Positions 674 to 978 of a stretch of DNA of 978 bases are shown in pieces (position 1 is the stretch's first letter; every line of letters begins with the position of its first letter). The DNA lies in assembly GCF_003334255.1 (NCBI RefSeq), contig NZ_QOWU01000179.1, one strand, 5' to 3'. The notes under the pieces were generated by a model, which did no database searches, was not told where the DNA came from, and worked only from the letters and a program-made list of their open reading frames with translations. The stretch comes from Escherichia coli. Its GTDB lineage: Bacteria > Pseudomonadota > Gammaproteobacteria > Enterobacterales > Enterobacteriaceae. A program made the translations under genes and the position numbers.

Positions 674-799
674 TTATTTACGGCGTTTATCGCCGGTAAA
701 GAATAATTCGATATCCTTCAGTGTGTAGATAATTCGCATAATGCCGATTGCCATAAGCACGGAGATAATCAGAATTACCCATGAAAGAAATATGCTCAT
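674..799 (-). CDS. candidate 41-aa small membrane protein (one transmembrane helix plus a short basic C-terminal tail); not in the ORF track
   Basis: Minus-strand ATG at 797-799 to TAA at 674-676 encodes MSIFLSWVILIISVLMAIGIMRIIYTLKDIELFFTGDKRRK. A GGGG Shine-Dalgarno (complement of 807-810) sits 7 nt upstream. The ATG overlaps the upstream gene's TGA stop (ATGA, plus 796-799), a classic translational-coupling arrangement. Hydrophobic residues 3-25 are followed by a charged tail ending KRRK. Confidence 0.5.
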   Translation of the reverse strand: MSIFLSWVILIISVLMAIGIMRIIYTLKDIELFFTGDKRRK

Positions 800-978
800 G
801 CGGCTACCCCTGTGAAGTAAGGCTCAACAATTTCACCTTCAAACAGTTCTGTCATAATCGACTTTAATTCTTCCAGCGCTTCACGGTCATCGCTGCCCAG
901 TGCGCAGTTGTATAGCCCCATAATTGCGCCGCGCAGTGAGTTACGAAGGCTTTCATCCTTAGTTACGCCCCGGTTTGC
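796..978 (-). CDS. 3' end of an unidentified gene (C-terminal 60 codons plus stop); N-terminus lies beyond window position 978
   Basis: The minus-strand frame is open from the window edge to the TGA at 796-798 and reads ...ANRGVTKDESLRNSLRGAIMGLYNCALGSDDREALEELKSIMTELFEGEIVEPYFTGVAA*. Codon usage is enterobacterial-like (CTG, CGC, GGC, GCA), with no stops over 183 nt. It is missing from the ORF track, probably because no start codon lies inside the window. I do not recognise the product. Confidence 0.6.
   Translation of the reverse strand, partial: ANRGVTKDESLRNSLRGAIMGLYNCALGSDDREALEELKSIMTELFEGEIVEPYFTGVAA

Follow-up and report, generated by a model that had tools for sequence, protein, structure and literature searches.

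A DUF4754-family gene and an overlapping membrane-peptide gene in the early operon of a P2-like prophage of Escherichia coli

The locus

The window analyzed here, a stretch of 978 nucleotides from Escherichia coli contig NZ_QOWU01000179.1 (assembly GCF_003334255.1), belongs to a P2-like prophage located beside chpSB/ppa. Its main features, together with one element found only outside it, are as follows.

1-230, minus strand: first 76 codons of a 3'-5' exonuclease gene (PHROG 255)
230-460, minus strand: gene of 76 amino acids (PHROG 22206, unknown function)
674-799, minus strand: gene of a 41-aa single-pass membrane peptide, MSIFLSWVILIISVLMAIGIMRIIYTLKDIELFFTGDKRRK (from the ORF list; RefSeq CDS WP_000021704.1)
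796-799, minus strand: ATGA stop/start overlap, the TGA of DUF4754 with the ATG of the peptide (read from the sequence)
807-811, minus strand: Shine-Dalgarno-like AGGGG (from the anti-SD duplex energy)
796-978, minus strand: 3' part of the DUF4754 gene, codons 21-80 and the TGA stop (from translation, PF15946 and PHROG 2549)
L002 3091-3109, L003 3900-3918 and L084 863-881, three related loci: exact 19-mer CCGCATTCGCGGAGGTATT

The prophage opens with a P2-type integrase, a C-like HTH repressor, Cox, a 64-aa gene, DUF4761, DUF4754 and the 41-aa peptide, and continues with the 76-aa gene, the 3'-5' exonuclease, a ParE-like gene, a Dam methylase and others, gpA, the portal, the terminase and the GPO scaffold. 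All early genes including DUF4754 are on the minus strand of the window, and DUF4754 sits in the early lytic (cox) operon, downstream of cox and DUF4761 and upstream of the exonuclease, the Dam methylase and gpA. One order, that is, int, repressor, cox, DUF4761 (where present), DUF4754, peptide and, further on, gpA, is found in six lineages. The 76-aa gene, which is joined to the exonuclease gene by a 1-nt overlap (TAATG), gave a weak AbiEi-like match (E 0.009) that is probably noise.

Several smaller elements were noticed around these genes. A second mini-ORF at 566-661 (minus strand), hydrophobic, 31 aa long (MKNVKAILTIATVWVIFQVSALIWLALKIWE) and unannotated in RefSeq, starts 12 nt past the stop of the 41-aa peptide; its frame stays open in 10 related loci, among which is a variant with 72% identity, and it is therefore probably a second small membrane peptide gene. 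The 108-nt intergenic gap at 461-565, just upstream of the 76-aa gene, contains a perfect palindrome, AAGGCATTCATGCCTT (495-510), which is followed by a T-rich run on the coding (minus) strand. The folding of the gap does not exceed that of shuffled sequence (z 0.06), and the terminator scan made no call there; the palindrome may serve as a weak terminator or as a binding site for a protein. The 19-mer listed above occurs about 30 to 50 nt downstream of the peptide stop in 75 of 176 fetched loci, and is kept even in L084, where DUF4754 is only 31% identical; it may be either a regulatory element or the start of a GTG-initiated ORF. Also outside the window, L001 carries at 13611-14048 (plus strand) an opposite-strand gene of 145 aa between cox and DUF4761/DUF4754, which has no PADLOC match and could be a moron or cargo gene. 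For the window as a whole, the Rfam scan returned no family at E ≤ 1, and the terminator and promoter scan did no better than shuffles.

Reading frame and intactness of the DUF4754 gene

Positions 796-978 on the minus strand are the 3' three quarters of an intact DUF4754 gene in a P2-like (Peduoviridae) E. coli prophage. Translation gives 60 sense codons, ANRGVTKDESLRNSLRGAIMGLYNCALGSDDREALEELKSIMTELFEGEIVEPYFTGVAA, and then a stop, the C-terminal end being LFEGEIVEPYFTGVAA followed by TGA. Aligned with the chromosome of E. coli DETEC-S792 (NZ_CP116067.1), the window shows 99.7% identity, and its only difference within the DUF4754 gene, at base 901, is synonymous. In that chromosome the frame runs on for just 20 further codons before it reaches an ATG with AAAGGA in front of it. 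The start codon thus lies 60 nt past the right edge of the window, at the notional coordinate 1038, and the complete gene measures 243 nt and 80 codons. The full-length CDS is WP_000568659.1, "DUF4754 family protein" (L001 12796-13038), and the encoded protein is identical. The first-pass annotation, which saw the window alone, had proposed a real upstream gene running past the window edge, and the 80-codon CDS in NZ_CP116067.1 bears this out. It had also held that an interruption just beyond position 978 would point to a pseudogene or a chance ORF; on extension the frame is uninterrupted up to the ATG.

That the window cuts the frame, leaving the start codon out of sight, is what could have suggested a chance open frame or a pseudogene broken just outside. 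Against this stand the complete CDS with its ATG and AAAGGA ribosome-binding site in a 99.7%-identical genome, the HMM matches to PF15946 and PHROG 2549 described below, 252 relatives among viral contigs, and a median dN/dS of 0.046 for DUF4754 (940 unsaturated pairs; 60 distinct nucleotide versions). The median for the membrane-peptide gene is 0.26 (unsaturated pairs; 60 distinct nucleotide versions), and these comparisons indicate that purifying selection acts on both genes. The intact CDS, the Pfam match and the low dN/dS rule out a chance ORF or pseudogene, to which we assign a negligible probability.

About 0.5% of complete E. coli genomes carry the prophage. Of 5,426 such genomes, 21 match at least 80% of the window and 31 match some part of it.

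Family membership and distribution

The protein matches Pfam family PF15946 (DUF4754) with E = 1.1e-15 and a score of 58.1, residues 3-77 aligning to model positions 3-77 of 80, and PHROG 2549 ("unknown function") with E = 1.8e-28, residues 1-78 on profile positions 1-78 of 80. All 13 diverse relatives that were scanned match PF15946 as well, and the window protein has the profile of the family in its length (80 aa) and its source (an enterobacterial P2-like prophage). The gene had been called unidentified in the first-pass annotation; it is in fact annotated, as DUF4754 (PF15946, WP_000568659.1), a label that carries no function.

Relatives are found in phages P88, 520873 and phiSM, and among cultured phages the family is limited to P88-like Peduoviridae (Xuanwuvirus). 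A HMMER scan of 1.84 billion representative proteins gave 30 clusters at E ≤ 1e-3, about 10 of them full length, and a profile search of a 5.8-billion-protein collection gave 53 clusters from E. coli, Salmonella and Citrobacter, of which all named ones are DUF4754 or hypothetical. The word-indexed protein search with the single sequence returned five matches only, all near-identical. A scan of species-representative genomes, run with a 6-sequence alignment, added little breadth, its two loci being E. albertii and one contig of a metagenome-assembled genome (MAG) labelled Collinsella. This contig (L177, JAIJJM010000267.1) carries a P88-type DUF4754 and peptide pair in the same style as the E. 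coli prophage, and its placement in Collinsella is probably a binning artefact. Further look-alikes, all unnamed, came from Klebsiella, Erwinia, Serratia, Trabulsiella, Sodalis and Edwardsiella in a Foldseek search of the AlphaFold database.

An example of the family from a cultured phage is P88 gp06 (YP_009113049.1), which shares with the window protein the length of 80 aa, the three-helix prediction and the place in the early operon, and which likewise overlaps by ATGA a 37-aa "membrane protein", gp07. The two DUF4754 proteins are only 41% identical, and the window allele is a rarer variant.

Functional searches gave nothing more specific. Pfam contains no further domain in the window protein or in the 13 diverse relatives, the NCBIfam scan returned no match, and the PADLOC scan gave Cas5e alone at E 0.047, that is, noise, with no defence-system match; the toxin, antitoxin and defence protein models of these three collections have no match to DUF4754. 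Our literature search found DUF4754, PF15946, DUF4761, PF15958 and Xuanwuvirus mentioned in no relevant paper, and a general search on P2-like early operons gave papers on the switch and Cox only. DUF4754 is a small, phage-restricted family that has already been catalogued without a functional label. Since the family has no known function, membership in it gives no mechanism.

Predicted structure of DUF4754

The AlphaFold2 model, built from the 13-sequence alignment (mean pLDDT 90.5, pTM 0.78), predicts with high confidence a three-helix bundle (helices 3-23, 29-48 and 52-66) with an extended C-terminal tail (67-80) that carries a conserved E-P-Y motif. Residues N10, D51 and E57 are conserved too. 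Being acidic (pI 4.7, net charge about -5) and lacking any hydrophobic segment, DUF4754 is predicted to reside in the cytoplasm and is unlikely to bind DNA. Fold searches found only the family itself and unnamed enterobacterial proteins in AFDB50, and nothing better than E 0.8 in BFVD; sequence and profile searches of the PDB gave noise or designed helical repeats only, and no structure search produced a specific match beyond a generic helical bundle. Identifying the full-length protein had been put forward as the quickest route to a functional guess for the membrane peptide. The route did not lead there, the profile, defence, structure and fold searches having returned the family or generic bundles only.

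The membrane peptide and the junction

The 41-aa peptide consists of an N-terminal hydrophobic helix (residues 3-21, where hydrophobicity reaches its maximum of 2.75) and a basic amphipathic C-terminal tail with an invariant I-E-x-F-F-T-G motif; its pI is 10. By the positive-inside rule the basic tail is probably cytoplasmic, which would place it on the same side as the acidic DUF4754. The net charges of the two proteins are opposed, being -2 to -8 for DUF4754 and +1.5 to +2.5 for the peptide. Database relatives of the peptide are all "hypothetical", with no characterized homolog among them.

The plus strand reads TCAT at 796-799, that is, ATGA on the minus strand, with two bases shared by TGA and ATG, so that the stop-start overlap with the 41-aa ORF is exactly as the first reading of the window had described it. 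The AGGGG element lies 8-12 nt upstream of the peptide ATG, inside DUF4754 codons 76-78. Across 79 distinct upstream sequences, the anti-SD duplex energy at -18 to -4 averages -5.9 kcal/mol versus -1.4 elsewhere in the gene, and only 6.7% of background windows reach the median. A Shine-Dalgarno-like element is present within the last five DUF4754 codons in every allele class, and this would account for the conserved Gly/Glu near the DUF4754 C-terminus and for the final NNA codon.

Linkage of the two genes across loci

In a first check, the ATGA overlap and the peptide ORF were present in 83 of 83 loci (80 protein-seeded viral contigs and L001-L003). Contigs seeded with the peptide gave the overlap in 80 of 80, the upstream ORF matching the DUF4754 HMM every time. 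Altogether 166 loci with 68 distinct pairs were collected, all with the overlap, and the two-gene unit is unbroken in all loci examined from E. coli, E. albertii, Citrobacter and metagenomes, the E. albertii pair overlapping by ATGA as well. In phage 520873 the arrangement is the same, with the peptide left unannotated in the record. The overlap is kept in the most divergent Pfam-positive members. These are P0013, P0018 and P0019, and likewise P0017 (L084), where DUF4754 identity is 31% and the peptide is a divergent one of 49 aa, and P0020 (L091; 36%), where the overlapping partner is a protein of 77 aa with two hydrophobic segments. The genes on either side vary. Upstream there is DUF4761 directly, an extra gene of 71-92 aa in between, or a GPO_N-like gene, DUF4761 being sometimes absent; downstream, ORFs of 31, 67, 71, 97 or 119 aa are found in different lineages.

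Two lineages depart from this pattern. P0033, of a Salmonella lineage (L085 4001-4450 and L086), has about 200 nt of non-coding DNA after its stop, and P0032 (L093 2832-3374) is a 180-aa form of DUF4754 with a C-terminal extension of about 100 residues; neither has an overlapping membrane ORF, and both match PF15946 when scanned directly. DUF4754 can therefore exist alone.

The first-pass annotation had taken the overlap to mean that the two proteins are probably co-expressed, and had suggested following the pair across genomes. The co-expression claim gains support from the ATGA in 166 of 166 loci and the Shine-Dalgarno-like element in each allele class, and the pair proved to be retained throughout these loci. 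The overlap itself is weaker evidence than had been assumed: by annotated coordinates, about 6 of the roughly 15 same-strand junctions in the operon have 4-base overlaps, and since this is the packing habit of the operon, ATGA alone does not single out this pair. From the conserved arrangement and the translation signals, the DUF4754 and peptide genes are kept together and very probably co-expressed.

The junction is also a mosaic recombination breakpoint (at about 800-804), several E. coli genomes matching the window over bases 1-804 only. A 29%-identical DUF4754 is found upstream of a 93%-identical peptide (L096 3175-3536 and L106), and conversely a 92%-identical DUF4754 upstream of peptides with 78-80% identity. 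Among pairs with DUF4754 identity of 45% or less, mean peptide identity is 55% and some peptides exceed 90%. Such free mixing of alleles at the junction speaks against a tight co-adaptation of particular alleles. When DUF4754 and the peptide were modelled as one chain with a 25-residue GS linker between them (AlphaFold, paired alignment), no confident joint fold resulted (pTM 0.48), and the peptide took the form of one long helix.

The one new element here is that DUF4754 is almost always coupled with a small membrane peptide, which annotation sometimes misses. The practical value is small, as the gene is real, intact and catalogued under a family name without a function. An unbroken, translationally linked pair of DUF4754 and a peptide of 37-49 aa in all but two divergent lineages is nonetheless a useful comparative observation.

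Proposed role and alternative explanations

The reading that we favor, with a probability only slightly better than even (roughly 0.55), is that the two genes form a co-expressed, non-essential early accessory cassette that serves host takeover or early exclusion from the inner side of the membrane, DUF4754 being a soluble partner or modulator in it. On infection or induction the early promoter would transcribe both genes, and ribosomes finishing DUF4754 would start on the peptide gene, so that synthesis of the one product accompanies that of the other. The effector would be the peptide, anchored in the membrane with its basic amphipathic tail and the I-E-x-F-F-T-G motif in the cytoplasm, and the acidic DUF4754 bundle would assist or modulate it as a soluble protein. 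The cassette as a whole would be a dispensable accessory module acting on the cytoplasmic side of the inner membrane, with host takeover or exclusion during early lytic growth as its likely role.

Another explanation, which we consider possible though distinctly less probable, is that the two genes are neighbors only: DUF4754 would act independently of the peptide as a soluble early protein, perhaps by inhibiting a host or defence protein, and the overlap and adjacency would reflect compact packing and linkage. The 4-nt overlaps at about 6 of roughly 15 junctions are in keeping with this, as are the breakpoint that falls exactly at the junction with alleles combining freely across it (29% versus 93% identity), the Salmonella (L085/L086) and L093 members that lack the peptide and still match PF15946, the linker-fused model without a confident joint structure (pTM 0.48), and a DUF4754 that diverges much faster than the peptide. 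Mere proximity is harder to reconcile with an adjacency of 166 in 166 loci, recovered from either gene and down to 29-31% identity, despite insertions and replacements immediately alongside, and with the retention of a membrane ORF in L084 and L091 despite its changed length and sequence.

At 37-49 aa, with a single hydrophobic helix and a charged tail, the peptide also has the format of a small membrane toxin; its start codon lies within the end of the upstream ORF, and the net charges of the two products are opposite. A toxin-antidote pair or gated toxin might thus be imagined, in which the peptide damages the membrane or blocks division and DUF4754 neutralizes it or licenses its translation in the manner of mok/hok. 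We regard this as improbable. Searches of Pfam, NCBIfam and PADLOC matched no toxin or antitoxin family, and the Rfam scan no antisense RNA family; an antisense promoter-like site is present within the peptide gene, but the 4 sites found in all compare with 3.7 expected by chance. The overlap is of 4 nt and not a nested frame like that of mok/hok, the cassette lies, judging from gene order, in a repressed lytic operon and would not be expressed in the lysogen, and DUF4754 is conserved, folded (as predicted) and under strong purifying selection, which is not what a mere leader ORF would look like.

Returning to the accessory cassette, a bolder version of it, which we put forward tentatively and hold to be clearly less likely than the general reading, is that the pair makes up a two-component module, not described before, with which enterobacterial P2-like phages act early in lytic growth. 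The effector would be the peptide, highly conserved and anchored in the membrane, which would block division or envelope functions or keep out superinfecting phages, and the fast-diverging DUF4754 would tune or gate it. If so, the conserved peptide is the effector of the module and the freely exchanged three-helix subunit its tuner. Phage P88, obtained by inducing a prophage, exists in culture and is therefore a tractable phage for work on small phage membrane proteins and on host takeover by P2-like phages.

Comparison with known systems

In hok/mok, a short hydrophobic toxin peptide has its translation start embedded in an upstream reading frame. The window pair is alike in that the peptide start lies within the upstream frame. 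It differs in that the overlap is only 4 nt and the upstream frame encodes a conserved protein with a predicted fold, in that the Rfam and promoter/terminator scans showed nothing above chance that would point to an antisense RNA or a fold-back mRNA element, in that the charged tail is predicted to be cytoplasmic and not periplasmic, and in that the cassette belongs to a lytic operon.

Among regulatory peptides, AcrZ, SgrT and MgrB are small proteins of the inner membrane, and T4 Imm is a small early membrane protein of a phage. The window peptide resembles this class in size and architecture, with one transmembrane helix and a short conserved soluble tail, and its expected early expression would be compatible with a role in exclusion or host modulation, as for T4 Imm. 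No homology of the peptide to any of them was detected, its relatives being all "hypothetical", and none of AcrZ, SgrT, MgrB and T4 Imm is known to have a dedicated soluble three-helix partner.

The nearest parallel in position is phage 186, in which fil ("overexpression blocks cell division") and dhr ("inhibits host DNA replication"), as they are annotated, are overlapping small genes between the switch genes and the first terminator. In P2 the equivalent slot after the switch genes holds orf78 and B, and reading the Orf78 sequence alone revealed no evident resemblance. Homology to Fil and Dhr was rejected, the hhalign probability being 0.06-0.1%, and the analogy is therefore one of position only; moreover, neither Fil nor Dhr is a short single-pass membrane peptide. 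The likeness lies in the small, overlapping genes that occupy the slot between the lysis-lysogeny switch and the replication genes, the 186 pair being non-essential. In kind, the job proposed for the cassette would match that of the unrelated 186 Fil/Dhr or of T4 Imm.
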